A stretch of DNA of 47,814 nt. Source: Chloroflexota bacterium (GTDB lineage: Bacteria; Chloroflexota; Anaerolineae; Anaerolineales; UBA11858). Positions 10,190 to 27,357 of the stretch are shown one piece after another. The stretch lies in assembly GCA_018263575.1 (NCBI GenBank), contig JAANWX010000056.1, forward strand, positions 1-47,814. The letters are read 5' to 3'. The translations under genes and the position numbers were made by a program. How positions within the stretch are numbered: the first letter of the stretch is position 1; every line of letters starts with the position of its first letter. The notes beneath the pieces are model-generated. The model was not told the DNA's origin. It did not search any database and saw only the letters and a list, made by a program, of their open reading frames with translations.

Positions 10190-10207
10190 CAAAAATCTTC
10201 CACCTTT

Positions 10208-10822
10208 TCAGAAACTAACGATTTGATTAAATTTTTCATCGTCATCTTGAAAGAGTACATTGTTAGCGTAGTCTTGATGATATCTGACAAATGTTTCGCG
10301 ACTCCCAAACCAATCCAGTACAGTTTCTCGCTGTACCAATGTCGGGGAACTTCCTACAATAGCCTTTTAGGAACTGAACAACCATGCTTCATAGCTTTTG
10401 CACAGTCCAACTTGAAGTGGATTAGCATGTATATAGAGAACTAAACGTAAAAGGTGTTTCTTATCTCTGACGGGCTTGCGTTTGAATTTGTATTGAAAAA
10501 GGCTACCAGTACGGTCAAAACGCTTGTTGAAACTTTTAGCATAGCTGATGAAGAAATCTCTATAAGCCTTTTCTAAAGGTGTAAGTTTACGGTAGCCTGG
10601 CTTTCCAGGGGGAGAAGCTTTTGAAGCATTCCGTGTTGTTTCTTTTACACATGACAAAAAATGGAAGTGTGTGGGCATTAAACAATAGGCATAGGTGTCT
10701 ATATGTGGAAGCAGGTATTTTTTGTAGCGTTGTAGAAAGAATAGGTAGTTTTCTTTCTCCCTGAAAATTTTCTCGCAATTATTGCCCCTATTGTAGACGT
10801 GGTAAAAGATTCCTTCTTCCAT
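10208..10822 (-). pseudogene. REP-associated tyrosine transposase (RAYT, Y1 HUH family) interrupted by TAA at 10367-10369
   Basis: YHVYNRGNN, YAYCLMPTHFH (HUH), RTGSLFQ, YIHANP; the frame continues after the stop with RAYT-like text (PTLVQRETVLDWFGSRETFVRYH) to TGA at 10208. Confidence 0.85.
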
Positions 10823-10835
10823 GCTCTTTCCTCCG

Positions 10836-10884
10836 GCAGACGCAGACTACAAAAGTCTCCGAGACTTTTGTAGTTTGCGTCTGC
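10836..10884. repeat. 24-bp-arm palindrome just upstream of the RAYT, same core as the neighbouring REPs
   Basis: GCAGACGCAGACTACAAAAGTCTC-C-GAGACTTTTGTAGTTTGCGTCTGC, one mismatch. Confidence 0.85.
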
Positions 10885-10920
10885 TCTGCTGTCTGCTCCT
10901 ATTATCTGCTTTAACTTAGT

Positions 10921-11655
10921 CTAATTATTTTTCTGTTTCCGCCGCCCTGCTATCCAGGCTAGAAATATACCTAAGAAGTACAGGCCCAGGAGAGGCAGCA
11001 TCACCAACATCATGTTGAACGGATCGGGGGTGGGGGTTATACCTGCGGCCAGGATAGCGATGGCGATAGCAGCGAATTTCCAACCACTGAGCAATTGTTT
11101 CGAGGTGACAATATTGAGGTGCGCCAGGAAATAGCACACTAACGGCATCTCGAAACTGACGCCTACCCAAAATATCAAGGAAAGGATGAACGGGATGTAT
11201 TCATCGACCATCCAAGTCGGTTGGATCACGTCTGAGAGAAAGCCCAGCAGGAAGGGAATGGCGGCGGGAATCATGACAAAATAGGCAAAGGCGCCCCCTA
11301 ATAGAAAAAACAACGTCACGGCGGGAATAATCCAATAAAGGGATCTGCGTTCTTTGCGGGTCAGTCCCGGTGTTATAAAGCCCAAGAGTTGGTAGGTGAT
11401 GAAGGGTAGGGCGACAACGACTCCCGATAGGAGTGAAATGCGCATGAAGATGCCAATGGATGTTGTTGGGCGGGGCGCGATGACGGGATACTCCCCCATG
11501 GGTGCCAGCAGAAAGCCTAAAATCGGTTTTGAGATAAAAAAGCAGCCAGCCCCAGCGACGATGAGGACGATGGCGGATTTAACTAAACGCTTTTGTAGTT
11601 CCCCCAAGTGTTCGAGCAGCGACATGCCAGATTGTGGTAGTGCCTCTTCAGACAT
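10921..11655 (-). CDS. tatC: Twin-arginine translocase subunit TatC
   Basis: MSLLEHLGELQKRL, FITPGL, FEMP, ITPTPD; multiple TM helices. Confidence 0.95.
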   Translation of the reverse strand: MSEEALPQSGMSLLEHLGELQKRLVKSAIVLIVAGAGCFFISKPILGFLLAPMGEYPVIAPRPTTSIGIFMRISLLSGVVVALPFITYQLLGFITPGLTRKERRSLYWIIPAVTLFFLLGGAFAYFVMIPAAIPFLLGFLSDVIQPTWMVDEYIPFILSLIFWVGVSFEMPLVCYFLAHLNIVTSKQLLSGWKFAAIAIAILAAGITPTPDPFNMMLVMLPLLGLYFLGIFLAWIAGRRKQKNN

Positions 11656-12148
11656 CAGTTTTACTTCTTTGGGTTGAATCCCTATCAGCTATCTCGGAGC
11701 GTAATTCGTGCACCATCTTTTCCAATTCTTTTACGCGGTCGTTTAGTACTTGCTGTTGATCAGCGGATGTCGCTTGCCTTGACACTTTTTGCTCAGGCCC
11801 CGATTCGGTGCCAGCATCCTCATCCTTGTTGGTCGATGAAGAGGCGATGTGGGGCATCGGTCTAATACTTTGTTTAACAGCATTTTCAATGGGTTGGACA
11901 GTTTCCTTTACGCCATTATAGGCCTTGTTCGTGTCGTTTAGGGTATCTTTGACCTCATTAACCACGTCAGAGACTCCTGTTTCTTCATTTAATCTGTCCA
12001 TGAATTGTGCCATTATGCGCTGGGAAACCCGAGCATAATATCCCAGTTTTTTCGCGATAATGGGCAATTTTTCTGGCCCAAACAGGATTAGCCCCAAGAT
12101 AAGGATAAAGAATACTTCAATCCCATTAAAATTGGATATGATATTCAT
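11648..12148 (-). CDS. tatB: TatB-like subunit
   Basis: E.FFILILGLILFGPEKLP; lies between tatA and tatC. Confidence 0.85.
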   Translation of the reverse strand: MNIISNFNGIEVFFILILGLILFGPEKLPIIAKKLGYYARVSQRIMAQFMDRLNEETGVSDVVNEVKDTLNDTNKAYNGVKETVQPIENAVKQSIRPMPHIASSSTNKDEDAGTESGPEQKVSRQATSADQQQVLNDRVKELEKMVHELRSEIADRDSTQRSKTDV

Positions 12149-12153
12149 TTAGT

Positions 12154-12336
12154 TTAGGGGTTCTGTTCTTCGTCCTCTGGGCTGTCGGCTTCGTCTTTGC
12201 CTACATCTAAAGCATTTTTGAATTCGTTGATAGCTCCGCCTAGACCTTTGCCAATATCCGTCAGTCGGCTCGCGCCAAAGATCAAGAGCACAATTATCAA
12301 GATGATTACCCATTCCCATACGCCAAAGCTTGCCAT
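12154..12336 (-). CDS. tatA: TatA/TatE subunit
   Basis: 60 aa; LLIFGASRL...GKGLGGAINEFK; AAGGAG RBS. Confidence 0.92.
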   Translation of the reverse strand: MASFGVWEWVIILIIVLLIFGASRLTDIGKGLGGAINEFKNALDVGKDEADSPEDEEQNP

Positions 12337-12568
12337 TTTATTTCTCCTTATGAATCGTGAAACGTAAAAAGTGAATCGTGAAAATTTTTCTTTACGATGT
12401 ATCTAAATTATATGAATTTTCTACTCTCTAAGCACGTAAGCCTTTTGTTGAATGCTGCTTGGATTATATGTTGGTTATTAACGGGCGTCAAGCAGCCAAG
12501 AAAGCGGTATATTCTAAAAGTCGTTGTAAATTTCTATCCTAATAAAGGGAGTCTATCAAGGCCGAAAG

Positions 12569-13018
12569 TTAGGTGACATCATCGTTGTCACTGACTGAAG
12601 AAGTTGGTGGATGCCAACCAACACTTATCCAGCGACTTCGTGCATATACAATAACGGGGTTGTTCATATTCAAGGCCACAATTGTTGCTCGAGCTATTGC
12701 GGTTAAGCCAATTACGTATAACCCAGATTCACCCCATTGGAAATGATCAGTCCAGGACTGCTGTCGGGGGTGAAAGAGAGGTACCATTTCTCCAGTCAAT
12801 GGGTCTTGGATATTGGAGACACTACCCTTAAACTCGTTGCAGCGTCGGCAAGCAAAGCAGAGGTTTTCAAAAACAGTATCACCGTTTTGGACTTGAGGTT
12901 TAATGTGATCCACTGTCATTGGTTGGCCAGTGTTGGCTTCGGTGGTATAGCAATAAGCACAGTGGCGGTTATCGGCCTCAAGCAAACGGTTGCGCAAATC
13001 CGGTGGCAGATAACTCAT
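12569..13018 (-). CDS. HNH endonuclease
   Basis: CAYC...VDHIKP...G...NLCFACRRCN; LFHPRQQSWTDHF. Confidence 0.9.
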   Translation of the reverse strand: MSYLPPDLRNRLLEADNRHCAYCYTTEANTGQPMTVDHIKPQVQNGDTVFENLCFACRRCNEFKGSVSNIQDPLTGEMVPLFHPRQQSWTDHFQWGESGLYVIGLTAIARATIVALNMNNPVIVYARSRWISVGWHPPTSSVSDNDDVT

Positions 13019-13021
13019 TGG

Positions 13022-13462
13022 TTATAATTTGTCCGCTGATGGAATCTGGTGTCCACGCCATTGCAATAGGACTGCAGCATGAGCCTTGAGCAACATCTGC
13101 CGGTCAAAGTCGGCGCGGAGTTGTTTTAGCTCTTTTTGCTCTTGGGTAGAAAGAGTTTGATTGGTGTGTTTATCCAGTAGTGATTGATATCGATCTGTCT
13201 GGGTTGAATCGGCTTGAGTGCGTGCGATGCGCCATAGAGATGCATCATCCATTCGATCTAGGGCAGCTAAATCTGCCTGAAATTCAGCCGGCGCGGTTTC
13301 CCAGGTCGGCGGACTACCAACTTGTAAAGCATGCAATGTTGTTTCTTGCAGAGATTGGCGAGTAGCTTGCGCGGTTTGTTCCAATCGTAGATATAAACTC
13401 TCCGGTAGTTTTACAGTAATACTTCTTTTAGGGGGGGGGCTTGTGATATGGCTCATTTTCAA
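13022..13462 (-). CDS. Hypothetical protein with RHH-like N-terminus, probable partner of the HNH gene
   Basis: ITVKLPESLYLRLEQTAQ; stop 3 nt before the HNH start; start may be 13456. Confidence 0.65.
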   Translation of the reverse strand: MKMSHITSPPPKRSITVKLPESLYLRLEQTAQATRQSLQETTLHALQVGSPPTWETAPAEFQADLAALDRMDDASLWRIARTQADSTQTDRYQSLLDKHTNQTLSTQEQKELKQLRADFDRQMLLKAHAAVLLQWRGHQIPSADKL

Positions 13463-13671
13463 CTCCCTGGATTTTACTTTTTTCCTTTGGGCGAAATGTG
13501 AGAACTATAATAAGGGTATTATATACTGCCTAGTAGCAGCGTCAATTGCTACCGATCCATTAGAATTCACGTGGATCAATACGATGAATTGTGCCCACGA
13601 TATCAAAACCAGAATCCGACGTGATGATTTCTTTACTTATCTTACGCTTATTGTCAAGAGACGTGAAAGCG

Positions 13672-15105
13672 CTACCCTGTTTCTAAGATATACGCAATCT
13701 CCTCACGCACCCCTTCAGGGAGCGGTTGTGGATTGTGGTCCTCGATGATGGACAAAGTCTTGTCGCGCAGTCGTTGCCCCAAGCCTCTGCCCCCCTCCGC
13801 CAGCCACTCCTCGGCCCGTTGCCGGCTGAATAAGGTAGGTTGCCAAAAATCTTGGAAATGGTCGAAGGTGTGATCGCTGGCCAAGAAATCCCCGCCCGGC
13901 CCAACCTGATGGATGACTTCCTTGGCCAGGGATTCAGCATCCAGGGAGATACCATCCATGAAACGCCGCATCATGGAGATGGTCTCCGCGCTGAAGACGA
14001 TCATCTCCGGTGAGGTGGTCAGGCCAGCTTCTAAATAGCCTACGTCGTGCACCAGGTTGTTCCCCGCCAAGAGCGCTACTAGCACTGAGAACGTGGCGTC
14101 AGCGGCGGCTTGTTCATCCATGAGGCAACTATCCGAATGTCCGGCGTAACCCCAACTGGGCAGGTGATAAAATCGTCCCATTTCGGCTACAGCTATGCGC
14201 GCCAGTTGAAACTCTGGAGCGCCGCCGTACACGCTGATGGTGGTTTTCATGTCCATGTGATGCAGCCCGCTCCCATAGACAAAGGGTGCGCCAGCGTGTT
14301 TAAGTTGGTGCATTACCAGGCTAGAGAGCATCTCCGCGTTTCCCAGGGCCAGACCGCCCGCCAGCGTCGCCGGAGCGGTTCCGCCCATCATTGGCGCGGG
14401 GGAGTGGACGATGGGCAAGGTATTATCGGCCATATAGAGCAGCTTGTCCGTGGCCGTTTCCGAGTGTTGCAGGGGTGTGGATGGTTCGGAGTAGAGCAGC
14501 AGGGTGGGGTTGAGGCGTAATGCTTCCATCCCTCCCGCCGCTGAGGCAGCCATGGCTGCGATGGCTTCACAATCGGCCCGGTCATCGCACACGAAGACGA
14601 TGGGCTTGGTGGTATGTTCTAGCATCAGCGCGAATTGATGTTGGTAGGCGTTGTCGGTATCTAGCTCTGAGGGGATGCCCATGGACATGCAAAAGTCGAG
14701 TTCTGGCAGGGCATCTACCACGTGGATGGCATCCACCACATCGGGGGTGGTGAACGGACGGCGCTCGCCCGTGCGCGGGTCAAGGTAATTGAGGCAGTCG
14801 GAGCCAGTCCCGAAATTGACCTTCCTCCCTTCTAATGGCGCGGCAACGTGATTGCTTCCCCGCCGGCAGAGGGCAACCCGCGGGGGAGCTTGCTCCAAGG
14901 CCCACGCTACCAGCCCGGCTGGAAAACGCACCAGATTCTCATCTGTTATCACGGCGTCAGTCTGACTCAAGAGGTCTAATGCCCCGGAGTGAAAGACGCG
15001 CACGCCGGTGCGGCGTAATATCTCTAGTGAAGTGCGGTGAACTAATTCGCATTGGTCTTGGTTGAGCATTCCCAGTTTAGGGAAAGCAAATGTGTTTTGG
15101 GTCAT
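13672..15105 (-). CDS. MttB-superfamily methyltransferase, non-pyrrolysine, copy 3
   Basis: 477 aa; FGTGSD, YSEPSTPL, MDMKT, GYAGHSDSC, HDVGYLE. Confidence 0.9.
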   Translation of the reverse strand: MTQNTFAFPKLGMLNQDQCELVHRTSLEILRRTGVRVFHSGALDLLSQTDAVITDENLVRFPAGLVAWALEQAPPRVALCRRGSNHVAAPLEGRKVNFGTGSDCLNYLDPRTGERRPFTTPDVVDAIHVVDALPELDFCMSMGIPSELDTDNAYQHQFALMLEHTTKPIVFVCDDRADCEAIAAMAASAAGGMEALRLNPTLLLYSEPSTPLQHSETATDKLLYMADNTLPIVHSPAPMMGGTAPATLAGGLALGNAEMLSSLVMHQLKHAGAPFVYGSGLHHMDMKTTISVYGGAPEFQLARIAVAEMGRFYHLPSWGYAGHSDSCLMDEQAAADATFSVLVALLAGNNLVHDVGYLEAGLTTSPEMIVFSAETISMMRRFMDGISLDAESLAKEVIHQVGPGGDFLASDHTFDHFQDFWQPTLFSRQRAEEWLAEGGRGLGQRLRDKTLSIIEDHNPQPLPEGVREEIAYILETG

Positions 15106-15375: not shown

Positions 15376-16242
15376 TCACACCTCGTTACTCGCCCGTTGA
15401 AACGCCAAATACAAAGCTTCGCTGACCAAGGTGGGGATGATTTGAAGCCGATATTCACGCGAGGAACGCATTAGGCTGCTGCGGGGATTGGCCTCCGCTT
15501 GGGCCAGCTTGGCCGCTTCTTGGATGGTCTCTTTGGTTATTTTTCTCTCGTTTAGATAAACCTCTGCCTTTCGCATGCGTTTTGGGCGGGATGCAACAGG
15601 GCCTAGGGCTAGGGTGACATTGTTCTCCTGGGCGTTGATTTCGAGTTTTACAGCGCAATTCAAGATGGGAAGCACCAGGGCAGGACGACGTCCTACCCGC
15701 TTCCAGGCGGTGCCGGTTTGGGAGCCGGGACGCGGGAAACGCAGGTGGGAGACGACTTGGCGGGTTGGGTCAATGGTGGAGAGGCCGGGGCCACGGAACA
15801 TGGATTCAACCGGTTGCCAGCCTGCGCCTTGCTGATCGACAACGCGTGCCTCAGCTTCAAGAGCGAGGGCGATGATGGCCCCATCCGCGGCGGGCATGGC
15901 CTGGACAATGTTGCCCACCCAGGTGGCCGCGTTCTGGATGGCCGCAGCGCCCACGCAACTGGCAGTGTTGACCAAAGCGGGCGTGTGGTGGCGTAAAAAG
16001 GGATGGCTTTGTATGGCGGCGAAGGTCACGGCCGCTCCCACGGTGAGATAAGAATCCGAGACCTGGATCTCGTCCAGGCCGGGAATCCGGGTGATGTCCA
16101 CCAAACAACACGGAGCGAGCGTGCCCTCCCGAATGGCTGGCATGACGTCCGTTCCCCCGGCGATGACGCGGGCATGGCCATCGTGTTGGGCCAAGACTTG
16201 GATGGCTTCTTCAAGTGTGGAGGGGTAGGCGTAGTGTGTCAT
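15376..16242 (-). CDS. Xanthine dehydrogenase family FAD-binding subunit
   Basis: IAGGTD, IQNAATWVGN, AMPAAD, SSREYR. Confidence 0.9.
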   Translation of the reverse strand: MTHYAYPSTLEEAIQVLAQHDGHARVIAGGTDVMPAIREGTLAPCCLVDITRIPGLDEIQVSDSYLTVGAAVTFAAIQSHPFLRHHTPALVNTASCVGAAAIQNAATWVGNIVQAMPAADGAIIALALEAEARVVDQQGAGWQPVESMFRGPGLSTIDPTRQVVSHLRFPRPGSQTGTAWKRVGRRPALVLPILNCAVKLEINAQENNVTLALGPVASRPKRMRKAEVYLNERKITKETIQEAAKLAQAEANPRSSLMRSSREYRLQIIPTLVSEALYLAFQRASNEV

Positions 16243-16319: not shown

Positions 16320-16414
16320 GATTGAAATCGAGGCTGATTTGCGAAACCGACCTGCGTCGGTTCAAGCCTAATCCGCGAAGGCGGATTTCGCACGCCAGCG
16401 GCGAATTCATTCGC
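16320..16414. repeat. REP-like palindromic cluster
   Basis: AACCGACCTGCGTCGGTT, AATCCGCGAAGGCGGATT and GCGAATTCATTCGC hairpins between the XDH subunit genes. Confidence 0.6.
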
Positions 16415-19175
16415 TTTGATCTGCGAAGGCTTGAATTGCCTGCAAAACCCGTTCTGGCGTAGCGGGGACAGCCCGAACTCTAGCCCCGATGGCGCGTGAA
16501 ATGGCGTTAATGATGGCCGGTGCGGTGGGCATAATGGCGGCTTCGCCCAATCCCTTGGCGCCAAAAGGTCCTAAAAAGCTGGGGACTTCGACTAATTCTA
16601 CCGTAATCTTGGGCATGGACATGGTGGTGGGGATGTAATAATCGCTGAAGCCTGTGCTCTTGCCGGGGAGGTATTCCTCCATGAGCGCTGTGCCCAGGCC
16701 CATGAGGACGGCGCCTTCAATTTGGCCTTGAGCATCAAGGGGATTGATCGCCCGCCCCACATCGTGAGAGGCGGCCAGGCGGGGAACGGTGACTTCCCCT
16801 GTGCGGGTGTTTACGGTCACTTGGGCGACTTGCGCTCCGGTGACAAAGAGCGGCACGTACTCTGGCCTGGTTTCTTTGGGGAAGTTGGGGGAGAGGTCAA
16901 AAATCCCCGGCACCCGGCGGGATTTCCCGATGCGCTCCATTTCCTGGGCTACGGCGCTCAAATCTATGCCTGTAGGAGATGTCTTTTGGGCACATCGAAC
17001 CTGGTCGGTGTCTAAGACCAGAGCGTTGGGAGGGCAGTCGAGCATCTCTGCGGCGGTGCTGAAAATCCCTGTTTTCAGGACCTTGGCGGCCTGACAAACG
17101 GCGCTGCCGACAAAATAAGTGGCCCGTGAGGCGCCCTGGATGCCGCTGTCAGGTGCGAGGGCTGTATCGGCGTTGATGACACTGACTCGCTCGCGCGGCA
17201 CGCCCAGCGCCTCGGCGGACAATTGGGCCATGGTTGTGTTGCTTCCCTGGCCGTAATCTGGCGCGGAGCAATAGATAATGAAGTTTCCATCCTTGGCCAG
17301 CTCAGCGTGGGCTTCAATTTTTAATGACCCTGATTTTCCAAACCGATACCACATGCCAGAAAGCCCCACACCCATGCGCAGTAGTGAGTCTTGATGGCCC
17401 TTGTTGAAGGCGGCGGCTTCGCGAAGGAAATTCTGGTAATAGGGCTGAATAGCATCCAAGACTTCCTGGTAGCCCAGGGATTCCGCTATGGGGTAGCCTA
17501 AAAATGAAACACTGTCTTGGTCAATGGCGTTTCTACGCCGGAATGCCAAGGGGTCTTGGTCCAGGGTTTGGGCCATTTCGTCCAGGGTGCATTCCAGGGC
17601 AAAGATTGATTCTGGCGAACCAAAGCCGCGGAATTGCCCTCCTTTGGGACCGTTGGTGTAGACGCTTTGGGCGTAGGCGTCCACGGCCTGGTAGCGGTAC
17701 GGTCCACCGCTGGCTGTGAGGGCGTAATTAGCGATATATTGCCCGTGGCCGTCATAGCCGCCGGTGTTGGCGTCCACGCGGGCGTGAATGCCGGTCAGGC
17801 GGCCATGGTTGGTGGCCCCAAGCCGGTAGCGAACGTGGTAGGGATGGCGCTTTGGAGAAGCCTCGAAGGATTCCCGCCGAGAATATGCAAGTTGAACTGG
17901 ACGCTGGGCGTTGAAAACGGCCAGGGCGGTGGTGATAAAGGGCCAAGGGTCTTGCCGGCCGCCAAAGGATCCGCCCGTGGGCGGCATGATCACGCGCACT
18001 TCCTCAGGGTCAAGGGCTAGGGAGGCAGCAATGTAGCCCTGTTGCCAGTGCGGTTCGTGTGTGCCGCCCATCACGGTGAGACGCCCTTCCTGGTCAAAAT
18101 ACCCTAGCAAGGCTTCTCGTTCTAAAGTGGCGTGCTCTTGCCAGGTGGTCGTGTAGCAGCTTTCGAGAATGAGATCAGCTTCAGCAAAGCTGGCTTCCAA
18201 ATCGCCGTGAGCTTCTTCTTCTGAGGTGAGAATATTGCCATGTGGATAAATAGGGAGTGCGTCTTCGGCTAAGGCGGTTTTAAGGTCGAAGGTATGCGGC
18301 AGCGGTTCGTAGGTGGCAAGCACGGCATCTAGTCCTGCCTGGGCTTGTTTGGGGGAGGTGGCGACAACCAGGGCCACCGGCGCCCCGCGCATTTTAACGC
18401 TCTCACCGACCGGGGTGAGGACCGGCTCGTCCCGGCTGTAATCGCCCAGGCCATTTTCGCCGGGGATATCCCTGGCGGTGAGAACACAGAGGACGCCCTC
18501 CACTTGCTCAGCCGCGCTGGTGTCCAGGGCGAGTAAGCGCGCGTGGTGGTGGGGACTGCGCAGCACGCCGGCGTAGGCCATCTCCGGGAGGGTGATATCC
18601 TCCACGTATTGCGTTTGCCCGGTGACCTTGTCGCGGGAGTCGGTGCGGATGGCGTTCCCGCCGATGAAAGGGGCGGAAGTCTGGAACTGGTCGGGCAGCG
18701 GGGACCCTTCCCCCCGGAGGCGGGCGGCGGCCACCTCCACAGCCTGGACAATGCGTTGATAGCCCGTGCAGCGGCAAAGATTGCCGGCCAAGGCGGTGAC
18801 GATCTCCTCCCGGGTCGGGCTAGGCTCCTCCCCCAAAAGGGCTTTGGCCGCCATGAGGACCCCCGGCGTGCAGTAGCCGCATTGCACCGCGCCCAACTCG
18901 ATGAAGGCTTCCTGGAGCGGGTGCAGGGCCTCAGGCTGGCCCAATCCCTCAACGGTGAGCACGCGCCGCCCAGCGACCTTGCCCATCGGGGTCAGACAGG
19001 AGCGGACGGCTTTCCCATCCAGGAGCACGGTGCAGGTTCCACATTCTCCCTCGTGGTCACAACCCTGTTTGGGGCCGGTGAGGCCTAAATCCTTCCGGAG
19101 CACATCCAAGAGCGGGCGGGCGGGGTCAACGTTGATGTTTATGGGATAGTGGTTGAGGGTAAAGCTAAGCTTCAT
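16407..19175 (-). CDS. Xanthine dehydrogenase/aldehyde oxidoreductase family fused [2Fe-2S] + molybdopterin subunit
   Basis: GCDHEGECGTC, QCGYCTPG, NLCRCTGY; GGSFGGR, FRGFG, AKGLGE (catalytic Glu); start MKLSFTLN overlaps the upstream stop. Confidence 0.92.
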   Translation of the reverse strand: MKLSFTLNHYPININVDPARPLLDVLRKDLGLTGPKQGCDHEGECGTCTVLLDGKAVRSCLTPMGKVAGRRVLTVEGLGQPEALHPLQEAFIELGAVQCGYCTPGVLMAAKALLGEEPSPTREEIVTALAGNLCRCTGYQRIVQAVEVAAARLRGEGSPLPDQFQTSAPFIGGNAIRTDSRDKVTGQTQYVEDITLPEMAYAGVLRSPHHHARLLALDTSAAEQVEGVLCVLTARDIPGENGLGDYSRDEPVLTPVGESVKMRGAPVALVVATSPKQAQAGLDAVLATYEPLPHTFDLKTALAEDALPIYPHGNILTSEEEAHGDLEASFAEADLILESCYTTTWQEHATLEREALLGYFDQEGRLTVMGGTHEPHWQQGYIAASLALDPEEVRVIMPPTGGSFGGRQDPWPFITTALAVFNAQRPVQLAYSRRESFEASPKRHPYHVRYRLGATNHGRLTGIHARVDANTGGYDGHGQYIANYALTASGGPYRYQAVDAYAQSVYTNGPKGGQFRGFGSPESIFALECTLDEMAQTLDQDPLAFRRRNAIDQDSVSFLGYPIAESLGYQEVLDAIQPYYQNFLREAAAFNKGHQDSLLRMGVGLSGMWYRFGKSGSLKIEAHAELAKDGNFIIYCSAPDYGQGSNTTMAQLSAEALGVPRERVSVINADTALAPDSGIQGASRATYFVGSAVCQAAKVLKTGIFSTAAEMLDCPPNALVLDTDQVRCAQKTSPTGIDLSAVAQEMERIGKSRRVPGIFDLSPNFPKETRPEYVPLFVTGAQVAQVTVNTRTGEVTVPRLAASHDVGRAINPLDAQGQIEGAVLMGLGTALMEEYLPGKSTGFSDYYIPTTMSMPKITVELVEVPSFLGPFGAKGLGEAAIMPTAPAIINAISRAIGARVRAVPATPERVLQAIQAFADQSE

Positions 19176-20547
19176 GGGCGGTTTGGGCGTGATGAATGGT
19201 GGCGAGGGTGCGCTGCATTTCGTTGTTGATAATGGCAATACCTTCATCGATTCCCATGCCCGGTTTGGCCATGACCATCTCCGGGCGGGTTGCCAGGGCC
19301 ACGTGGGCCGAGACGCGCGCAGAGAGGTCGGTTTCGGCGCAGCTTCCGCCCAGAAAGGCTTTCACATCCCCCGCCTGACAGGCCAGAACAGCCTCTACTG
19401 CGTCACACACGCTTCCTAAATCGGGCATTTTAACCTGGATCATGTGGGCCGCTTTGGCCTCGATAAAGGCGCCAATATCCTCCAAGGTGTTGGCCCATTC
19501 GTCGGCCACGATTTCCACCTTCATTTTGCGAATGCGAAGATAATCCCGCAGGGTTTGCATGCTTTTAATGTGCGCCTGGCGGGTTTCCCCTATGAGCGGG
19601 CATTCCACGCGCAGGGGGTAGGGTTGGGCGGCTTGTTCCAGGGCCGAGAGCGCGCCCAGTACTCGTCCTAAATTATGGTCATAAATTTCTCCCAACGCGC
19701 CATGAACATCGAGGTGAATGGTAGGCACATACTCCTCTCCGCCCAACTCGTTAATGCGGGCGCTGAGCCAGCGGACATAACGGGTTAGGACAACGGCGTC
19801 CTGTCCGATGTGTTCGGGGATATTATCAACCAGCGAGTGGGGGAGGGAATCCACCCGTTTGGCAATCATTTTGTCGGCTCCGTCGTAGCGGTCGGCTCCA
19901 CATTGGGCGTGGATGGGGATGGGCGTTTGGGGGAGGGGCAGATTCCATTCCCGGCAGATGACCTCGGCCATGGTCGTGCCCTGGGCCAGGGCCACCGCTT
20001 GGAGCAGGGCCTGGCTGACCCCGTAGCGGATGGCGGTGTGCAGCGGCCTCTCCTCTGTGACGCGCTCGGTGGGGGGGGAGGGGTCGGGGTTGAGGAGGCG
20101 GGCCGGGGCCGTGAAAAGCTCGCGCCGGGAAAAACCATCCCCCGCCTTGCGTTTGGGCAATAGACGTTCAATTTCCATGCTTTCAGTGAGGGCATCCACC
20201 TCTGCGGCCAACGCCCGGAAAGAGGTGAGGGGACGGTTTTCCAGGAGCGGGGCCAGGCTGCGCTGGATAGTGGCCATTCCCTCCTGGGAGCGGAAAACCG
20301 GATCCCGCCCAGCCTTGCCGCTGAACTCCACGGCCACGCAATCCCCCCACGCCACGCGGCCATCGTCCAACACCAGTCCCACAGAAAGGGCTTCAGCAGG
20401 CTCGCGGACGCAGCGGAATCCGGGTGTGTGGGGTTGGGCGGTGTAGCGCTCGGCCACGGACATGGGTTGGGACTGGAGCGCGGCCAGGTCGTCGTAATAA
20501 TATCCGCCAAGGGCGGGGGTGGTGAGGATGCGAGTTATGCGTGTCAT
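19165..20547 (-). CDS. mal: Methylaspartate ammonia-lyase homolog (enolase superfamily) with variant active site and ~40-aa insertion
   Basis: GYYYDD, GDC..V..SG.AGRDP, LHTAIRYGVSQA, VADEW.NT, QVKMPDLG, AKPGMG.DEG. Confidence 0.88.
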   Translation of the reverse strand: MTRITRILTTPALGGYYYDDLAALQSQPMSVAERYTAQPHTPGFRCVREPAEALSVGLVLDDGRVAWGDCVAVEFSGKAGRDPVFRSQEGMATIQRSLAPLLENRPLTSFRALAAEVDALTESMEIERLLPKRKAGDGFSRRELFTAPARLLNPDPSPPTERVTEERPLHTAIRYGVSQALLQAVALAQGTTMAEVICREWNLPLPQTPIPIHAQCGADRYDGADKMIAKRVDSLPHSLVDNIPEHIGQDAVVLTRYVRWLSARINELGGEEYVPTIHLDVHGALGEIYDHNLGRVLGALSALEQAAQPYPLRVECPLIGETRQAHIKSMQTLRDYLRIRKMKVEIVADEWANTLEDIGAFIEAKAAHMIQVKMPDLGSVCDAVEAVLACQAGDVKAFLGGSCAETDLSARVSAHVALATRPEMVMAKPGMGIDEGIAIINNEMQRTLATIHHAQTAHEA

Positions 20548-20557: not shown

Positions 20558-20692
20558 GAGTGGCGAGTGTGCGAGTGGCAAGTGGGCAGGTGGCAAGGGG
20601 CAAGTGGGCAGGTGGCAAGTGGCAAGGGGCGAGTGGGCAAGTGATAGCTGGTGCATTGCACTACCTGTATTTTGGGAGTGCGTTGCACCTTG
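20558..20692. repeat. Degenerate 7/8-mer tract (AAGTGGC/AAGTGGGC) followed by REP hairpin GGTGCATTGCACT...AGTGCGTTGCACC
   Basis: Read directly; the same hairpin recurs at 35452-35495. Confidence 0.75.
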
Positions 20693-20695
20693 CGT

Positions 20696-21724
20696 TTACG
20701 GCGCTATAACCACCCGCGTGTCGGAGCTGAAACTCTCCAGGCGGTCCATGGTCTCGTTGACAGCATCAGCATCCAGGGGTACGGTATCGCTGACCACGCC
20801 GGAAAGGTCTAGGGTGCCGCGCCGGGCCATTTCGATGAGGGTGGGCAATTCGCGGGCAAGATGGTCGGCCGAACCGATGATCTCCGCCTCCCGGCATATC
20901 ATTTCTTCATAAGCGTTGAATTGGGAGTTCTCATCGCTGAGGCCCACCATGACTGCTCGGCCAAAGACGGCCAACACCTCTATGGACTGGCGCACGGTGA
21001 GAGGCAGGCCGATCAGCTCCAGGGCTACGTCCACGCCACGGCCACCGGTGAGGCGTTTGATCTCCTCCACGGGGTCGGTTTCGGCAGCGTTGACCGGGAT
21101 GGCCCCAAATCCCTCGGCCGTTTTGAGCTTGGCTGGGTTAATGTCCACGGCGAAGGTGTCCAGCGCCCCAAAGGCCGGGGCCAACTGCACGGCGGACATT
21201 CCCAATCCGCCCACACCGAAGACGGCCACCGTATCTCCCGCGCTGACCCGTCCCTTGCGCAAGGCGTGGAATGAGGTCGCGGAGGAGCACATCATGATGG
21301 CCCCTTGCGCGAAGGGAATCTCTTCGGGGAGGAGAAAGGCGTTACGGGCTGGGATGAGGATATATTCGGCGTAGCCTCCGTTCCGGTTTTTGCCCAGCAT
21401 CTGGCCCGAGGCGCAAAATTGCTCGCTGCCCTGGGCGCAGTACGCGCAGTCTCCGCAGGTGACCATGTAATGGAGGCAGACCCGGTCGCCAATCTCTCGT
21501 GAGGTGACTTCTGCTCCTATCTCTTCGACGACGCCGGCCACCTCGTGACCCAGCGTGAGAGGGAGGGGGTTGACGGGCGAGACTCCGGCCCTATAGTGGG
21601 CGTCTGAGTGGCAGATGCCGGCCGCCTTGACGCGCACGAGCACATCTCTGGGGCCGGGTTCGGGCTTGGGTATTTCTTGGATTTCTAGGGGTTGATGGGG
21701 TTTTATGAGGCGAATGGCTTTCAT
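20696..21724 (-). CDS. Zinc-dependent alcohol dehydrogenase (MDR family)
   Basis: GICHSD, GHE, CGDCAYC..C, GVGGLG. Confidence 0.93.
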   Translation of the reverse strand: MKAIRLIKPHQPLEIQEIPKPEPGPRDVLVRVKAAGICHSDAHYRAGVSPVNPLPLTLGHEVAGVVEEIGAEVTSREIGDRVCLHYMVTCGDCAYCAQGSEQFCASGQMLGKNRNGGYAEYILIPARNAFLLPEEIPFAQGAIMMCSSATSFHALRKGRVSAGDTVAVFGVGGLGMSAVQLAPAFGALDTFAVDINPAKLKTAEGFGAIPVNAAETDPVEEIKRLTGGRGVDVALELIGLPLTVRQSIEVLAVFGRAVMVGLSDENSQFNAYEEMICREAEIIGSADHLARELPTLIEMARRGTLDLSGVVSDTVPLDADAVNETMDRLESFSSDTRVVIAP

Positions 21725-21809: not shown

Positions 21810-22595
21810 CTACACATGCCCATAATAATCTCGATGGACTACCACCGAGTAGGCGTAGTCTAAAAGTGTGCCCCAGGTGAAGATGGGGATGTCGATTTGG
21901 TGTTGTATGGCGCGGGCAAAAGGCTGCATACCGGTGCATTCTAACATCATGGCGCCCATATTGGGATGGGCTTCGTAGAATTCCACGGCCACGGCCATAA
22001 ATTCCTCTTCGGCTTTGTCGTAATAGGCCTGGGGGGGATCGGGGCGTTTAGGTTTGTACCACAGATGCTCGAATTCCTCGCAGCGACCATCGTCCTCCGC
22101 TCCCTCAATGACGTAATTTGTGCCGGGGATGATGCCAACGGCGTCCAAATGGGCTTGGCGGAGTTGGGCCTTGCGGGCCGCCAAGATGCCGACAACCTGT
22201 TCAGGGCCAATGAGTTGTTGGGCAAAAGGGACTTGTAAAAGGCTGGACATGAAGACGGGCACGTCCACGTGTTTGGCGATGTCCTTTTGGAAGTAGGCAA
22301 AATAGCCGCATTCGGCGGCAATGGCCCGGCAGCCCATTGATTCTAGTTTTTTGGCGGCGCGTTGGATGGGCTCCAGGCAGGGAGATTTATCTTCCTCGTG
22401 AACTAAAGCCCAAATGTCTACGCCTTGGGCAATTTCGTATTGGATGGGAAAGGGAAATGCGCTGGCGTTGCGCACGTCGCCGGGGAAGCCGGGATAGACG
22501 TCATCCAGGATGATGATGCCTAGGCCCATGCCGTAACAGCGGTGGTCTTTGCGGGCTTTGATATGGTTGATTCCTAAATCTCGATTGCGGTACAT
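21810..22595 (-). CDS. Aspartate/glutamate/hydantoin racemase superfamily protein
   Basis: GIIILD..YPGFPGDV.NA..FPFP; two Cys motifs AECGYF and LECTGM; GGAGG RBS. Confidence 0.75.
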   Translation of the reverse strand: MYRNRDLGINHIKARKDHRCYGMGLGIIILDDVYPGFPGDVRNASAFPFPIQYEIAQGVDIWALVHEEDKSPCLEPIQRAAKKLESMGCRAIAAECGYFAYFQKDIAKHVDVPVFMSSLLQVPFAQQLIGPEQVVGILAARKAQLRQAHLDAVGIIPGTNYVIEGAEDDGRCEEFEHLWYKPKRPDPPQAYYDKAEEEFMAVAVEFYEAHPNMGAMMLECTGMQPFARAIQHQIDIPIFTWGTLLDYAYSVVVHRDYYGHV

Positions 22596-22873: not shown

Positions 22874-24289
22874 TTAGCGGTTGACGATATTTTGGAGTGC
22901 GGTTTGGGTTTTTTCTGGCAAGGGTTCCGCGCGGTGGGTTTTTAGAATCTCTTTCACTTTTTGGTTGGCCCTTTCTTCTAAGGTTTCCTCTCCGGCCTCA
23001 GCCCAGCGCTGGTAGTCAAGGCGGTCTAGGAGGGTTGGTTGCCAGTCATCGTGGAGGTGATTAAAGGTATGATCCGCCTCCAAGAAGTATTCATCAGGGC
23101 CTAGTTCGTGGATTAAATCCAAGGCCAGGGTGTCTTCATTGATTTCCAGGGGGCTAAAGTAAGCTTCGAGCCAGGAGATGATCTCATCGGAGAGGGCTAC
23201 TAATTCCAGGGAGCCGGTCATGGCGCAGTCTAAGTAACCCACATCGTGGATGAGGTTAGCCCCGCCGAGGGTGTTGGTGAGTAGGGTGAGGGCAGCCTCG
23301 GTTGCGGCTTGGGTGTCAAAGATCTTTGAATCGCTGCAGCCGGCCGCGCCAAAGATGGGGATGCCGTAGTGATGGGCTAAGTCCCAACCGTACGGGCCGC
23401 CATCGGGGGCGTTGTAGAGGCTGATCAGGGTTTTCATATCCAGGGTGTTGCCACCGGGGTTGCTGCGCAAGAAAGGCGACCCTTCCCGTTTGAGCTGGGA
23501 AAGCACCAACCCGGCCAGTTGCCCGGCGTTACCCACGGCCAGCGCGCCGGCGGGGGTTATGGGAGATGTGGTGCCACGCGTGTTGCCGGGAGCGTAGATG
23601 GTGGGGATACCTCGTTCAGCCGCGTAGAGCAAGCGCTGGACGCTTTCTTTATTGTGTTGAAAAGCTGAAACCGCATTTACGTAGTTGATGATGAATGGAT
23701 ATTTTTGAAGGTTCTCTATCCCTTCACTCACTATTGAGGCCATTTCGATGGCGTGGATTGTACTAGCGGCTTCCATACCCACAAACACAATCGGTTTAAC
23801 GCTCTCCTGGAGCATGATGGCCATTTGTTGGCGTTCGTAACGATCGTCTGGGATATCGGAGGGCAAGAACATGGACATAATAAAGTCCAGGTTGGGCAGA
23901 GCGTCCACTAAACGCACGCCATTGACGACATCGTTCAGGACTGCTTTACGCCGCTGATTGGTGTTGATGTCATAGATATGCATGCAATCGGAGCCAGGAC
24001 CAAAATAGCTCCGGTACTCGCCTAACCCCATGGCGGGGTTCCCCTCTTGATTGTAGATAGCAATGTTTTTGGGCACGCAACGTAAAGCCCACTCCACTAA
24101 ATTTTGAGGAATGTGGACGATGTTCCCATCAGTGATGGTAGCGCCGCCTTTTTTGAATAGGCTAAGGGCTTCTTCATCGTGAAAGCGCATTCCAGTGTGC
24201 GACATGATTTCCAGGCTGGCCCTATGCAAGTGGGATATTTTGATGTTGCTTAAAGTTTTAAATTCGAGTTTTGCGTTTGTAATAGGCAT
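22874..24289 (-). CDS. MttB-superfamily methyltransferase, non-pyrrolysine, copy 4
   Basis: 471 aa; FGPGSD, LDMKT, GAAGCSDSKIFD, HDVGYLD. Confidence 0.9.
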   Translation of the reverse strand: MPITNAKLEFKTLSNIKISHLHRASLEIMSHTGMRFHDEEALSLFKKGGATITDGNIVHIPQNLVEWALRCVPKNIAIYNQEGNPAMGLGEYRSYFGPGSDCMHIYDINTNQRRKAVLNDVVNGVRLVDALPNLDFIMSMFLPSDIPDDRYERQQMAIMLQESVKPIVFVGMEAASTIHAIEMASIVSEGIENLQKYPFIINYVNAVSAFQHNKESVQRLLYAAERGIPTIYAPGNTRGTTSPITPAGALAVGNAGQLAGLVLSQLKREGSPFLRSNPGGNTLDMKTLISLYNAPDGGPYGWDLAHHYGIPIFGAAGCSDSKIFDTQAATEAALTLLTNTLGGANLIHDVGYLDCAMTGSLELVALSDEIISWLEAYFSPLEINEDTLALDLIHELGPDEYFLEADHTFNHLHDDWQPTLLDRLDYQRWAEAGEETLEERANQKVKEILKTHRAEPLPEKTQTALQNIVNR

Positions 24290-24602: not shown

Positions 24603-25250
24603 TCAGCGTACGTCGATGATCTCCTGGCCTTCAATTTGTTCCAAAGCAGCGACAACTTCTTCTTTGTCTCCACCTTGGATCTTGAGGACAGCATCCCAGT
24701 ACCCCGGTTGCTTTGGGGCGTCGTGTCCCCCACCGCCGTATATTCCCCATCCGTGCGAGGCGATCACGTCGGTGACCTTCGCGCTCTCTCCGACCTTGTC
24801 TGGCATACGAATAGTGACACGTACCCCTTGGACAGTCGCTCCCATGAGGTGGGCGAGATGAGCCAACATATCGGTATCGGTGATGATGCCACCCACAACG
24901 CCGTCCTCGAGGACAGGTAAGCAGCCAATTTTTTCTTCTAACATGATCTTGGCGGCGTCTTCGATGGTGATGTCACCTTCTGTGGTGATCAGGTCTTTGC
25001 CCTTTACCATCATGCCTTTGACTTTTAGGTCTGATAAAAGGCGGCTTATCTCCCAAACATTGAGACTGCCCAAATCAGATGGCGGAACGTGTAACTTTTC
25101 GCGGGTAATAAGACCCAGCAAACGTTTGCCATCACCGACGACAGGTAAGTGGCGAATGTTGTTTTCTGTCATGATATTTTGCGCCTCAGAGGCGTCTGTT
25201 TCAGGGGATATCATGATCGGATGTCGGGTCATGTAATCTTTAACTAACAT
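24603..25250 (-). CDS. AcuB-like CBS-pair + ACT domain protein
   Basis: MLVKDYMT, IRHLPVV, IGCLPV, GIITDTD, C-terminal ACT-like PDKVGE. Confidence 0.85.
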   Translation of the reverse strand: MLVKDYMTRHPIMISPETDASEAQNIMTENNIRHLPVVGDGKRLLGLITREKLHVPPSDLGSLNVWEISRLLSDLKVKGMMVKGKDLITTEGDITIEDAAKIMLEEKIGCLPVLEDGVVGGIITDTDMLAHLAHLMGATVQGVRVTIRMPDKVGESAKVTDVIASHGWGIYGGGGHDAPKQPGYWDAVLKIQGGDKEEVVAALEQIEGQEIIDVR

Positions 25251-27357
25251 GGTTAGAACCCTCCGGTTTTTGCGTGATAACAGGATCAAAGGTGTTCAAA
25301 GTTTCTAAGGGTATGTGGCAGAAGATACGATGTCCTTCGGCAGTTTCGCGCCAGGGGGGCATTTCTGTCTCGCAGATGGCCCCACCGTCGGGGAGCAATT
25401 CCCTACGAGGGCAGCGGGTGTGGAAGCGGCAACCGTCCGGGGGATTGATGGCGCTGGGGACGGTTCCCTCCAAGCGGATGTGCTTTTGCTCAGCCGAGGG
25501 ATCAGGGATCGGTACGGCTGAGAGCAAGGCCTCGCTGTAGGGATGGTAAGGCGGAGCATAAATGGCGTTGGCTGGGCCAATCTCCATGATTTGCCCCAGG
25601 TACATTACTGCTACCTGGTCGGAGAAGAAGCGCACCACGCTCAGGTCGTGAGCAATGAACATCATGGTTGTGTCATATTCCTGCTGAAGCTCCAATAACA
25701 GGTTGAGCAAAGCTGCCTGTACTGAAACGTCTAGGGCGCTAACAGGCTCATCACACAAGACCAGGTTGGGGTGACTGGCCAAAGCGCGGGCAATCCCTAC
25801 ACGTTGTTTCTCTCCCCCGCTGAGCTGACGCGGCAGGCGGTCATAGTAATTCTCTCCCAGCCGCATCGACTCTAGGAGTTTGATGACCTCTCCCCGAATC
25901 TCATCTTTAGGCACGGTGCTAAAACGCTTCATGGGTCGGCCTATCTGCTGCCCAACCGTGTAGGAGGGGTTCATAGTTGAGTCAGGGTTCTGGAAAACCA
26001 TCTGCAGTTCTTTGATAACATCTTCTCCGCGTGTTGAGATTTCATCGGTGATGTCAATCTCCATGAATTCCGCATGGCCTTCAGTGGTTTGCTCTAGTCC
26101 AATGATGGTCTTGATAAGAGTACTCTTCCCACAGCCAGATTCACCTACCACGCCTAAGGTTGTACCTCGTGGCAGATCAAAGTCGGCATTTTCAACTGCT
26201 TTAACATAACGTTGTTCACCGAGTCCTAAGATATCTTTCAGTGAACTACCTTGAACTTCGTAGTACTTTTTCAGATTATCCAATTTAAGGATAGGTTCTC
26301 GAGGGCTGGTGTCAGTAATGATTTCAGGTGGCAGGATATCGTCACTAGGAGACCATTTGTCAGCTTCAATCTCGCCAGCAAAATGGCAGCGGACAGATAC
26401 ACCACTAGAAAACTCAAGCAACTCAGGACGTTTATTGTGGCAAATCTCTCGGACGTAGTCACAACGAGGGCTGAAAACACAGCCTACGGGACGGTTATTG
26501 GGCGGCGGGACCCGTCCCCGGATGGGGTAGAGAATGCTGCTGGCTTTGTCTGCACCCAATTTGGGCACGCAGCGCATGAGTCCCTGTGTGTAGGGATGTT
26601 GAGGATCTTTGTAGATATCTTCCACGGTGCCCCGTTCAACCATCTCGCCGGCATACATCACCCCAACCCGCGTGGAAACGCGAGCCACTACGCCCAGGTT
26701 ATGGGTAATGTACATGATTGCTGTGTCAAACTCTCGCCGCAGATCAGCGATCAAGTCCAACACGACGGCTTCTACAGTCACATCTAACGCGGTGGTGGGT
26801 TCGTCCATGATCAGTAAGGCTGGGTTATTGAGCAAGGCGGTGGCGATGACCACACGCTGCTGCTGACCGCCTGAAATTTGGTGCGGATAACGATTCATGA
26901 CGTTGGCCGCATCGGGCATATACACCCGCTCTAACATTTCAATGCAACGTTTCTCAGCCTCTTTTTTATCCATATCACGATGCACCGTTAACACCTCTGA
27001 CATCTGGTCGCCCAGGCGCATAGAAGGGTTAAGGGCCTGCATGGGATCTTGGTAGACCATGGCAATTTGGTCACCCCGCAACCGGCGGAGTTCCTCTCCG
27101 GTTACGCCGACTAATTCTTGGCCTTGGAATTTGATGCTGCCACGTTTTACGTATCCATTGGCTCCCAAAAAGTTAAGTACAGCCCAGGCAACGGTACTTT
27201 TCCCACAGCCTGATTCTCCTACGATGCCGTGGGTTTCACCGCGGTTGATTTCAAAAGAGACGTTTTGAACGGCCTCAATTTCGCCGCCGCGTATTTTATA
27301 AGCAACCGCTACATCTTCAAGTATTAGAACAGGAGGTGCTTTTTTTAAGTTATTCAT
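25240..27357 (-). CDS. Fused OppD/OppF-type ABC ATPase
   Basis: Two GESGCGKST Walker A motifs, ISGGQQQR and LSGGEKQR, Cys-rich C-terminal oligo_HPY motifs. Confidence 0.95.
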   Translation of the reverse strand: MNNLKKAPPVLILEDVAVAYKIRGGEIEAVQNVSFEINRGETHGIVGESGCGKSTVAWAVLNFLGANGYVKRGSIKFQGQELVGVTGEELRRLRGDQIAMVYQDPMQALNPSMRLGDQMSEVLTVHRDMDKKEAEKRCIEMLERVYMPDAANVMNRYPHQISGGQQQRVVIATALLNNPALLIMDEPTTALDVTVEAVVLDLIADLRREFDTAIMYITHNLGVVARVSTRVGVMYAGEMVERGTVEDIYKDPQHPYTQGLMRCVPKLGADKASSILYPIRGRVPPPNNRPVGCVFSPRCDYVREICHNKRPELLEFSSGVSVRCHFAGEIEADKWSPSDDILPPEIITDTSPREPILKLDNLKKYYEVQGSSLKDILGLGEQRYVKAVENADFDLPRGTTLGVVGESGCGKSTLIKTIIGLEQTTEGHAEFMEIDITDEISTRGEDVIKELQMVFQNPDSTMNPSYTVGQQIGRPMKRFSTVPKDEIRGEVIKLLESMRLGENYYDRLPRQLSGGEKQRVGIARALASHPNLVLCDEPVSALDVSVQAALLNLLLELQQEYDTTMMFIAHDLSVVRFFSDQVAVMYLGQIMEIGPANAIYAPPYHPYSEALLSAVPIPDPSAEQKHIRLEGTVPSAINPPDGCRFHTRCPRRELLPDGGAICETEMPPWRETAEGHRIFCHIPLETLNTFDPVITQKPEGSNHVS

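Follow-up and report, generated by a model that had tools for sequence, protein, structure and literature searches.

The stretch of DNA analysed here, which we call the window, comprises 47,814 nucleotides of contig JAANWX010000056.1 from a Chloroflexota bacterium of the Anaerolineales (GCA_018263575.1). It carries a gene for a homologue of methylaspartate ammonia-lyase (MAL), the product of which we refer to as P0001. P0001 retains the fold and the catalytic residues of MAL, but its substrate pockets are altered and its gene has a different genomic setting from that of the MALs linked to glutamate mutase. The gene is part of a minus-strand operon that runs from 31561 down to 13672 and contains the following features:

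19165–20547, minus strand: MAL-family gene (P0001; 460 aa, ATG at 20547, TAG at 19165–19167), a member of a Chloroflexota-specific subfamily
20050–20181, minus strand: codons of the subfamily insertion (residues 123–166, 44 aa), between MAL residues 121 and 124
25240–31561, minus strand: Opp/Dpp-type ABC importer, with a double ATPase (25240–27357), two permeases (27368–28276 and 28289–29587), and a family-5 solute-binding protein (29819–31561)
24603–25289, minus strand: CBS-pair protein, overlapping the end of the ABC ATPase gene
22874–24289, minus strand: MttB-superfamily methyltransferase of ortholog group a, MttB(a), between the CBS and PRK07475 genes
21810–22595, minus strand: Asp/Glu-racemase-superfamily protein (NCBIfam PRK07475, 273 bits) with conserved Cys motifs
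20696–21724, minus strand: Zn-dependent alcohol dehydrogenase, directly upstream of the MAL gene, with NAD-dependent alcohol dehydrogenases as closest solved relatives
16407–19175, minus strand: enzyme of the xanthine-oxidase family with fused [2Fe-2S] and molybdopterin-binding parts (Pfam and PDB matches), hereafter the Mo enzyme
15376–16242, minus strand: FAD-binding subunit of the molybdenum enzyme
13672–15105, minus strand: MttB-superfamily methyltransferase of ortholog group c, MttB(c), without an in-frame stop; this group follows the FAD subunit in 11 related loci

Because 21 homologues align from the ATG onward (MT.IT...), ATG 20547 is the likely start of P0001; the longest version of the frame reaches a GTG at 20688. 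Right before the start codon, in the interval from the alcohol dehydrogenase stop to the MAL start, lies a tandem repeat with 11.6 copies of AGTGGCA (20559–20643), and no obvious ribosome-binding site was seen at this repeat-flanked codon. Further imperfect tandem repeats are found between genes at 35252–35405 and 35519–35660, and repeat periods overall are 7–8 nt or 15–23 nt. At its other end the MAL gene overlaps the gene for the Mo enzyme, as a preliminary description of this DNA had stated. The longest frame of the latter (16407–19247) gives an overlap of 83 nt, and an in-frame ATG at 19175–19173 gives one of 11 nt over the MAL stop. This ATG is the likely start; its product (MKLSFTLN...) agrees at the N terminus with the Desulfovibrio aldehyde oxidoreductases, which are the closest solved relatives of the Mo enzyme (PDB: 1dgj, E = 2e-122; PDB: 1sij, E = 4e-121).

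P0001 is a full-length MAL homologue, as described earlier. It has the two-domain architecture of the family in Pfam (MAAL_N, 1.5e-50; MAAL_C, 1.2e-96) and is similar to the MALs of Clostridium tetanomorphum (CtMAL, PDB: 1kcz, E = 1.4e-105) and Citrobacter amalonaticus (CaMAL, PDB: 1kko, E = 1.2e-100), both EC 4.3.1.2. An AlphaFold model from a 22-sequence alignment (mean pLDDT 85.7, pTM 0.86) finds 3zvi, 1kcz, 1kko, and 3zvh as its best PDB matches in Foldseek (target-normalised TM 0.92–0.95, identity 39–40%), and the next matches after these MAL entries are other enolase-superfamily enzymes at about 14% identity. Membership in the MAL family is thus not due to chance. The NCBIfam equivalog TIGR01502 scores P0001 at 465.5 bits (cut-off 286.15) and does not separate the subfamily, so automatic annotation will name its members methylaspartate ammonia-lyase. 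No fused forms were found at E <= 1e-20 among longer proteins (806–2300 aa), which is weak evidence.

Residues were read from the alignment of P0001 to 1kcz, in which residues 3–122 correspond to MAL 2–121, 167–269 to MAL 124–226, and 270 onward to MAL 228 onward, and a script extended the reading to close homologues. A word-indexed search gave 1750 relatives, of which we analysed the best 120 (at least 63% identity, 430–497 aa); these are mostly metagenomic, and those with names are called methylaspartate ammonia-lyase and come from metagenome-assembled genomes of Anaerolineae or Chloroflexota. The Mg2+ ligands are retained (D280, E315, and D349, corresponding to MAL D238, E273, and D307) and are invariant in all 120. 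K373, H237, and Q371 correspond to MAL K331, H194, and Q329; the lysine and histidine are present in 120/120 close homologues and the glutamine in 119/120. Q172, which we take to be an amine-pocket residue of MAL, is kept, as is Q329, presumably the enolate partner. P0001 therefore shares with CtMAL and CaMAL the two-domain enolase-superfamily fold and every catalytic residue that the preliminary description had listed. According to PMC7586795, K331 is the S-specific and H194 the R-specific base of MAL.

The substitutions listed in the preliminary description are likewise all present: relative to CtMAL, Q73 is Glu in P0001 (AVEFSG instead of AVQYSG), F170 is His, Y356 is Phe, L384 is Met, and Y240 is His (HLDVHG instead of HIDVYG). 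To these the alignment adds S173C, T360S, N362A, A77K, N198D, and C310A. We take F170 and Y356 to be methyl-pocket residues of MAL. Among the 120 close homologues, H170, H194, D238, H240, E273, D307, K331, and C361 are invariant, and S360 (119/120), F356 and M384 (115/120 each), and A362 (109/120) nearly so. Canonical MALs (n = 31) instead have Q73, F/Y170, and L384 in 31/31 and Y356 in 24/31; H194 is present in 30/31. As a subfamily, these proteins differ from CtMAL and CaMAL by Q73E/A, F170H, Y240H, Y356F, T360S, N362A, L384M, A77K, N198D, C310A, and an insertion after residue 121. Of these, Y240H, N362A, A77K, N198D, and C310A are essentially fixed among its members, as is the insertion. 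P0001 itself lacks the features of a strict 3-methylaspartase at Q73, in the F170/Y356/L384 pocket, and in linkage to a mutase.

Position 73 has a second common state. The close homologues have Glu (76), Ala (41), Cys (2), or Thr (1), and the species loci described below have, where the position is covered (49/51), Ala in 33, Glu in 13, and Val, Cys, and Ser in one each; Gln occurs in neither set. Of the two residues proposed for a conservation check, H170 is present in 51/51 subfamily loci (H240 in 49/51), whereas Glu73 accounts for only 13/49, against 33/49 for Ala. Since Glu73 is not the conserved state of the subfamily, no specific role can be argued for its carboxylate. Glu73 and Ala73 proteins have the same neighbouring gene families beside them; a cross-table showed no difference, which rules them out as neighbourhood-distinct types.

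Positions 73 and 384 had also been singled out as those mutated in engineered MAL. Both are, according to PMC7586795, in which Q73A broadens the amine scope of CtMAL and takes linear and cyclic alkylamines, and L384A broadens the fumarate scope. The alanine of the Q73A variant (PDB: 3zvh) is found at the same position in 33/49 subfamily species. P0001, by contrast, has Glu, and the natural proteins, known from sequence, carry many more changes plus the insertion. At position 384 the same alkyl-pocket residue is altered as in L384A (PDB: 3zvi), but the natural change is to the larger Met and should narrow the pocket. L384M is therefore the opposite of L384A, and the analogy with engineering is restricted to position 73.

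To place the gene in context, we scanned 185,579 species genomes, which gave 313 matching stretches, and used the best 80 of the 313 for locus counts. Fifty-one loci (L001–L051, 55–71% identity) are all from Chloroflexota (Anaerolineae, Anaerolineales, Ardenticatenales, Caldilineae, Thermoflexia, and Chloroflexia). L053 (48% identity) is a basal insertion-bearing member and was left out of the remaining 28 loci, which hold other MALs from many phyla. Open reading frames (ORFs) of the loci were clustered by all-against-all BLASTP, and clusters were named by Pfam/NCBIfam on one representative each. MutE, MutL, and/or GlmS are present in 14/28 other MAL loci, typically in the order GlmS-MutL-MutE-MAL, with genes for a fumarase-type hydratase and for subunits of citrate-lyase type after them. 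In the subfamily, clusters for MutE, MutL, GlmS, mesaconase, and citramalate lyase occur in 0/51 loci within up to 10 kb, and MttB, ABC-importer, and Mo-enzyme genes stand in their place. The window agrees with the preliminary description in this respect: a Pfam scan of its 36 ORFs of at least 140 aa found no MutE, MutL, or B12-binding domain, and tblastn with MutE, MutL, and GlmS seeds from other loci gave no match at E <= 1e-3. It had also been asked whether the pocket substitutions are common in mutase-linked MALs. They are absent from 14/14 sampled, which have Q73, F/Y170, Y240, and L384 in 14/14 and Y356 in 12/14. Among the other homologues, three from Bathyarchaeia (L057, L069, and L078) keep Q73, F170, and Y240 but have D238G, Q329N, K331M, and L384A; no mutase was found near them, and they are probably not lyases.

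The methyltransferase neighbourhood described for the window extends to the subfamily. MttB-superfamily genes are present in 42/51 loci (41/51 when ORFs lying over the MAL gene are left out), compared with 0/28 other MAL loci, and L053 is the only MttB-holding locus outside the 51. Next in frequency are the Opp-type ABC ATPase/permease (29/51), the CBS-pair protein (23/51), a second permease (21/51), the xanthine-oxidase-family Mo enzyme (17/51; 16/51 without ORFs lying over the MAL gene), the Zn-dependent alcohol dehydrogenase (15/51), a polyferredoxin-like protein of 341 aa and the family-5 solute-binding protein (14/51 each), and the FAD subunit of the Mo enzyme (11/51). Less common are the PRK07475 racemase-like (10/51), MmgE/PrpD-family (8/51), and class-I glutamine amidotransferase-like (7/51) proteins, histidine ammonia-lyase (5/51), tungsten-type AFOR (3/51), urocanase (2/51), and a corrinoid protein (2/51).

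Gene order is conserved as well. In the commonest arrangement the solute-binding protein is followed by permeases, ATPase, CBS protein, MttB(a), PRK07475, either alcohol dehydrogenase or polyferredoxin, and MAL, and then by MttB(b) (in some loci), the Mo enzyme, its FAD subunit, and MttB(c); the window follows this order without MttB(b). Where enough sequence was available, the next co-directional gene downstream of MAL is MttB in 21/45 loci, the Mo enzyme in 7/45, and AFOR in 2/45, and several of these genes overlap the MAL gene or are separated from it by no more than 30 nt. On the upstream side, the adjacent gene is polyferredoxin in 12/48, alcohol dehydrogenase in 6/48, and PRK07475 in 5/48. 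AFOR replaces the Mo enzyme in L032 and L033. In a tree of 82 MttB ORFs, the groups follow position in the operon, which indicates three orthologous MttB lines and no random paralogs. The PRK07475 copies of the 10 loci have an average identity of 85%; the protein had no PDB sequence match at E <= 1, the ESM Atlas gave only "aspartate/glutamate racemase family protein", and a model from a 10-sequence alignment (mean pLDDT 45) is unusable for fold assignment. Histidine ammonia-lyase (TIGR01225, 650 bits) is encoded directly upstream of the MAL homologue in L014, L021, L022, L025, and L037, and urocanase (TIGR01228, 921 bits) also upstream in L014 (region 6386–9996) and L022. These neighbours hint at regions that collect catabolic genes for amino acids or amino-acid betaines.

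HMMER, run exhaustively against 1.84 billion representatives of 50% clusters, returned 839 relatives, 231 of them at E <= 1e-30. At this clustering the subfamily is represented by just two full-length sequences (P0072 and P0121, with scores of 663 and 620 bits) and a fragment; the relative that comes next, at 47% identity, scores 371 bits. We also built a FastTree phylogeny from 202 sequences, comprising the locus proteins and those representatives with 380 aa or more, and placed its root on the mutase-linked clade. In this tree the insertion-bearing sequences fall into a single clade of 113 leaves (support 0.968). The subfamily is thus discrete within the MAL family, and it is restricted to Chloroflexota among the 51 species loci.

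The sister clade (17 leaves; joint support 1.0) lacks the insertion and has S73, H/Q170, S172, and H240, with H329 and L356 also found in the type represented by L058 and L075. Both non-canonical clades share A77K, L85R, N198D, Y240H, and C310A relative to canonical MALs. The sister clade is tied to betaine-type transport: in 2/2 sampled loci there is an overlap between its gene and the end of the gene for a BCCT betaine/carnitine/choline transporter (L058, 8460–9989 with 9986–11206; L075, 8533–10011 with 9998–11167). It resembles the subfamily in K77, R85, D198, H240, and A310 and differs from it by the missing insertion, by Q172 to Ser, Q329 to His, and an H194 that is often Ala, and by having no MttB neighbours in the two loci seen. 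The sister clade supports a betaine-type theme. L058 has an aldehyde dehydrogenase gene upstream, and L075 has genes for a thiolase, a FadB-like protein, and a family-III CoA-transferase downstream.

The insertion is 42–65 residues long across the subfamily and contains the motif SRR(E/D)L(F/L) with invariant R141 and R142. It is modelled with low confidence (pLDDT ~60) as a helix (141–152) between two strands. The same insertion, with SRRDLF, is retained by a clade that has lost the catalytic residues (e.g., P0124, P0144, P0148, P0150, P0160, P0165, P0169, P0175, P0179, and P0180). This clade comprises 48 cluster representatives with 40–50% identity to the subfamily, nests inside the insertion-bearing subfamily in the tree, and lacks the Mg2+ ligands, K331, and H194; P0148, for example, has D238N, E273V, K331N, and H194Y at 42% identity to P0001. 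Its members are probably pseudo-enzymes, to judge from these residues, and since they keep the insertion, the insertion or its motif has a role apart from catalysis. The SRR motif resembles a twin-arginine signal but is internal and has no hydrophobic stretch after it. A second, dead MAL-like copy in the window or the 80 loci was ruled out, as tblastn with seven dead paralogs matched only the known MAL genes there. Directly after the operon the window has genes for TatC and TatA/B-like proteins (10921–12148, minus strand), and so do L009, L016, and L045, which is curious in view of the twin-arginine-like motif.

The window encodes seven MttB-family ORFs, none of which is interrupted by a stop codon. 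Besides the two in the operon (13672–15105 and 22874–24289, minus strand) and one more, they are:

22–1470, minus strand: MttB-family ORF
8439–9932, minus strand: MttB-family ORF
33804–35246, plus strand: MttB-family ORF
37635–39227, plus strand: MttB-family ORF

MttB(a) is ruled out as a glycine betaine enzyme: of the four glycine-betaine-binding residues given for MtgB in PMC13080624 (Y97, R312, H348, and F356), only H348 is kept, as mapped by hand from the alignment. The ORF at 8439–9932 is the window's closest to true trimethylamine methyltransferase (TIGR02369, 476.8 bits; cut-off 525). Within it, from about residue 334, is an Rfam match to PYLIS_3 (8834–8933, minus strand, 44.7 bits; gathering score 38) that has no in-frame TAG and reads ...YNSAGMTDSK.... 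This was the only match of the Rfam scan of the window, in which no riboswitch was seen; there are no tRNA genes.

Several other parts of the window lie outside the operon. The stretch at 10000–14000 is low in GC (0.45–0.46, compared with 0.58–0.61 in the operon) and holds unassigned small ORFs, an HNH endonuclease ORF (12569–13018), and a REP-associated tyrosine-transposase-like ORF (10367–10822). A polyphosphate gene group occupies 1614–8290 on the minus strand, with PPK1 (1614–3746), two PPK2 genes (3908–4747 and 4884–5702), and a gene whose 856-aa product combines CYTH, HD/Ppx-like, and CHAD domains (5720–8290). Towards the 3' end of the window, a DUF3800 ORF (41079–41909, plus strand) and a HEPN (Cthe_2314-like) ORF (46063–46683, minus strand) adjoin NifS/NifU-like and DsrE-like genes.

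Taken together, we tentatively favour, at somewhat less than even confidence, the reading that P0001 is an intact Mg2+-dependent MAL-fold enzyme of a Chloroflexota-restricted subfamily that acts as a putative aspartate-type C-N lyase and not as the 3-methylaspartase of glutamate fermentation. Given its pockets and its gene neighbourhood, it probably cleaves an amino-dicarboxylic acid other than 3-methylaspartate. The preliminary description had inferred a natural alkylamine lyase for an N-substituted amino acid, which the present results support in part, as a putative function. By analogy with MAL chemistry (PMC7586795), Lys373 (the K331 equivalent) would take the proton alpha to the Mg2+-bound carboxylate, and the enolate so formed would then expel the amine from the adjacent carbon. 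That Q172, S360, and C361 are retained suggests continued binding of the other carboxylate and thus a substrate with an aspartate-type skeleton. In MAL, S/T360, C361, and Q172 presumably hold this second carboxylate. Ala or Glu in place of Gln73 would open or charge the amine site, as would suit a leaving group that is bulkier than ammonia, with a methylated amine the most likely candidate. Met384 and His170 are expected to fill the methyl pocket or to make it more polar, in keeping with a substrate that lacks a 3-methyl group; the larger Met384 in particular suggests the loss of that group and no bulky substituent at C3. The product would then be of the fumarate type. Such chemistry has a counterpart in EDDS lyase and related C-N lyases of the aspartase/fumarase superfamily, which, according to PMC7586795, convert N-substituted aspartates to fumarate and thereby set free amines bulkier than ammonia. 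They differ from P0001 in having an unrelated fold and mechanism, no Mg-enolate, and no sequence relationship to it.

The neighbourhood suggests where such a substrate might come from. The imported compound may be a methylated (betaine-type) amine whose methyl groups are harvested by the MttB enzymes. Known substrates of the MttB superfamily include trimethylamine, glycine betaine, carnitine, gamma-butyrobetaine, and phosphocholine, and proline betaine was also tried with MtgB (PMC8604678, PMC12155760, and, for MtgB, PMC13080624), which makes an N-methylated aspartate-type compound the most economical guess. The dehydrogenase and the Mo enzyme may create the second carboxylate. An alcohol dehydrogenase with an aldehyde-oxidoreductase-type Mo enzyme (or AFOR) could oxidise a hydroxylated precursor, for which homoserine betaine is one candidate, though a speculative one. 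A bolder version, which we consider unlikely, holds that the subfamily is the first natural amine-lyase in the enolase superfamily, expelling mono-, di-, or trimethylamine from an N-methylated aspartate or "aspartate betaine". It would perform the last, carbon-salvaging step of an undescribed pathway by which Chloroflexota of sediments degrade a hydroxylated amino-acid betaine, for example homoserine betaine, with the SRR insertion docking a partner. In that pathway the Opp importer and CBS protein would take up the compound, the alcohol dehydrogenase and Mo/W enzymes would oxidise its alcohol to the acid and so provide the second carboxylate required by the Mg-enolate chemistry, the three position-conserved MttB enzymes would demethylate it, and C-N cleavage would yield fumarate. 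A literature search found nothing on this MAL subfamily or on a link between MAL and MttB and no described catabolic pathway for homoserine betaine; PMC6946804 mentions MAL only as a branch of its superfamily.

Several observations weigh against a specialised C-N lyase. The curated TIGR01502 equivalog model accepts P0001 with a score above its cut-off. Position 73 varies (A, E, V, C, S), which could reflect relaxed constraint and no designed pocket, and the side chain at 384 becomes larger with Met, whereas the engineered change there is to Ala. The Mo enzyme, alcohol dehydrogenase, and PRK07475 each occur in a minority of loci, and because many loci also lie on short contigs, any pathway reconstruction is loose. 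No corrinoid-protein gene was found in the window by tblastn with seeds from L033 and L044, so the cognate corrinoid protein, methyl-tetrahydrofolate transferase, and activase must lie elsewhere. As MttB(a) keeps one of the four MtgB residues, even its preference for quaternary amines is putative and no substrate can be derived from it. Known MttB enzymes yield tertiary amines, and no MAL-family enzyme is known to expel a secondary, tertiary, or quaternary amine in nature.

Some of these points would suit an ordinary 3-methylaspartate (or aspartate) ammonia-lyase whose pocket has drifted, with the mutase or a methylaspartate-cycle set encoded elsewhere in the genome. The equivalog score, the full set of catalytic residues, and the database labels of close homologues all fit such an enzyme, and wild-type CtMAL already takes aspartate and small amines (PMC7586795). 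We nevertheless consider it unlikely, as MutE, MutL, and GlmS are absent from all 51 subfamily loci while half of the other MAL loci have them, the pocket changes are fixed across the subfamily and missing from the mutase-linked enzymes, and a different synteny has been conserved in place of the mutase. A two-base racemase or epimerase is a further candidate, acting on an amino-acid betaine with a quaternary or tertiary amine at the alpha carbon and supplying the right stereoisomer to MttB. Enolase-superfamily epimerases of proline betaine and hydroxyproline betaine exist, the two opposed bases, equivalent to K331 and H194, do not vary among the 120 close homologues, and MttB genes accompany this gene, as BCCT transporter genes do its sister clade. 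H194, however, is equally conserved in true lyases (30/31 canonical sequences), the second-carboxylate residues S/T360, C361, and Q172 fit an aspartate-type lyase substrate, and the operon already has a separate racemase-superfamily gene (PRK07475), which together make this candidate quite unlikely. We regard as very unlikely that P0001 catalyses another beta-elimination or addition on a non-amine substrate (e.g., hydration or dehydration of an acid of the substituted fumarate or malate type) or serves mainly as a structural partner through the SRR insertion. The enolase superfamily often switches reaction type, the dead paralogs retain the insertion, and MmgE/PrpD-family genes are near in eight loci; on the other hand, Q172 and the MAL-type substrate-binding residues are kept, and P0001 has the full catalytic set that the dead paralogs have lost.

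A putative C-N lyase in this setting bears on how the family is annotated and used. To call these proteins methylaspartate ammonia-lyase would suggest, incorrectly, that their hosts ferment glutamate or run a methylaspartate cycle, and the subfamily is likely a case of systematic mis-annotation. MAL is a workhorse for the synthesis of substituted aspartates and Q73A its best-known variant, so that a natural clade with Ala or Glu at position 73 and a remodelled second pocket is a ready source of putative C-N lyases with new amine scope. The subfamily is a good enzyme-discovery lead, its function being putative and read from sequence, and it offers a tractable entry point, as a single soluble enzyme. 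Anaerolineae and related Chloroflexota of sediments carry many MttB homologues, and a lyase fixed beside them suggests that a methylated nitrogen compound is catabolised there by a complete route.

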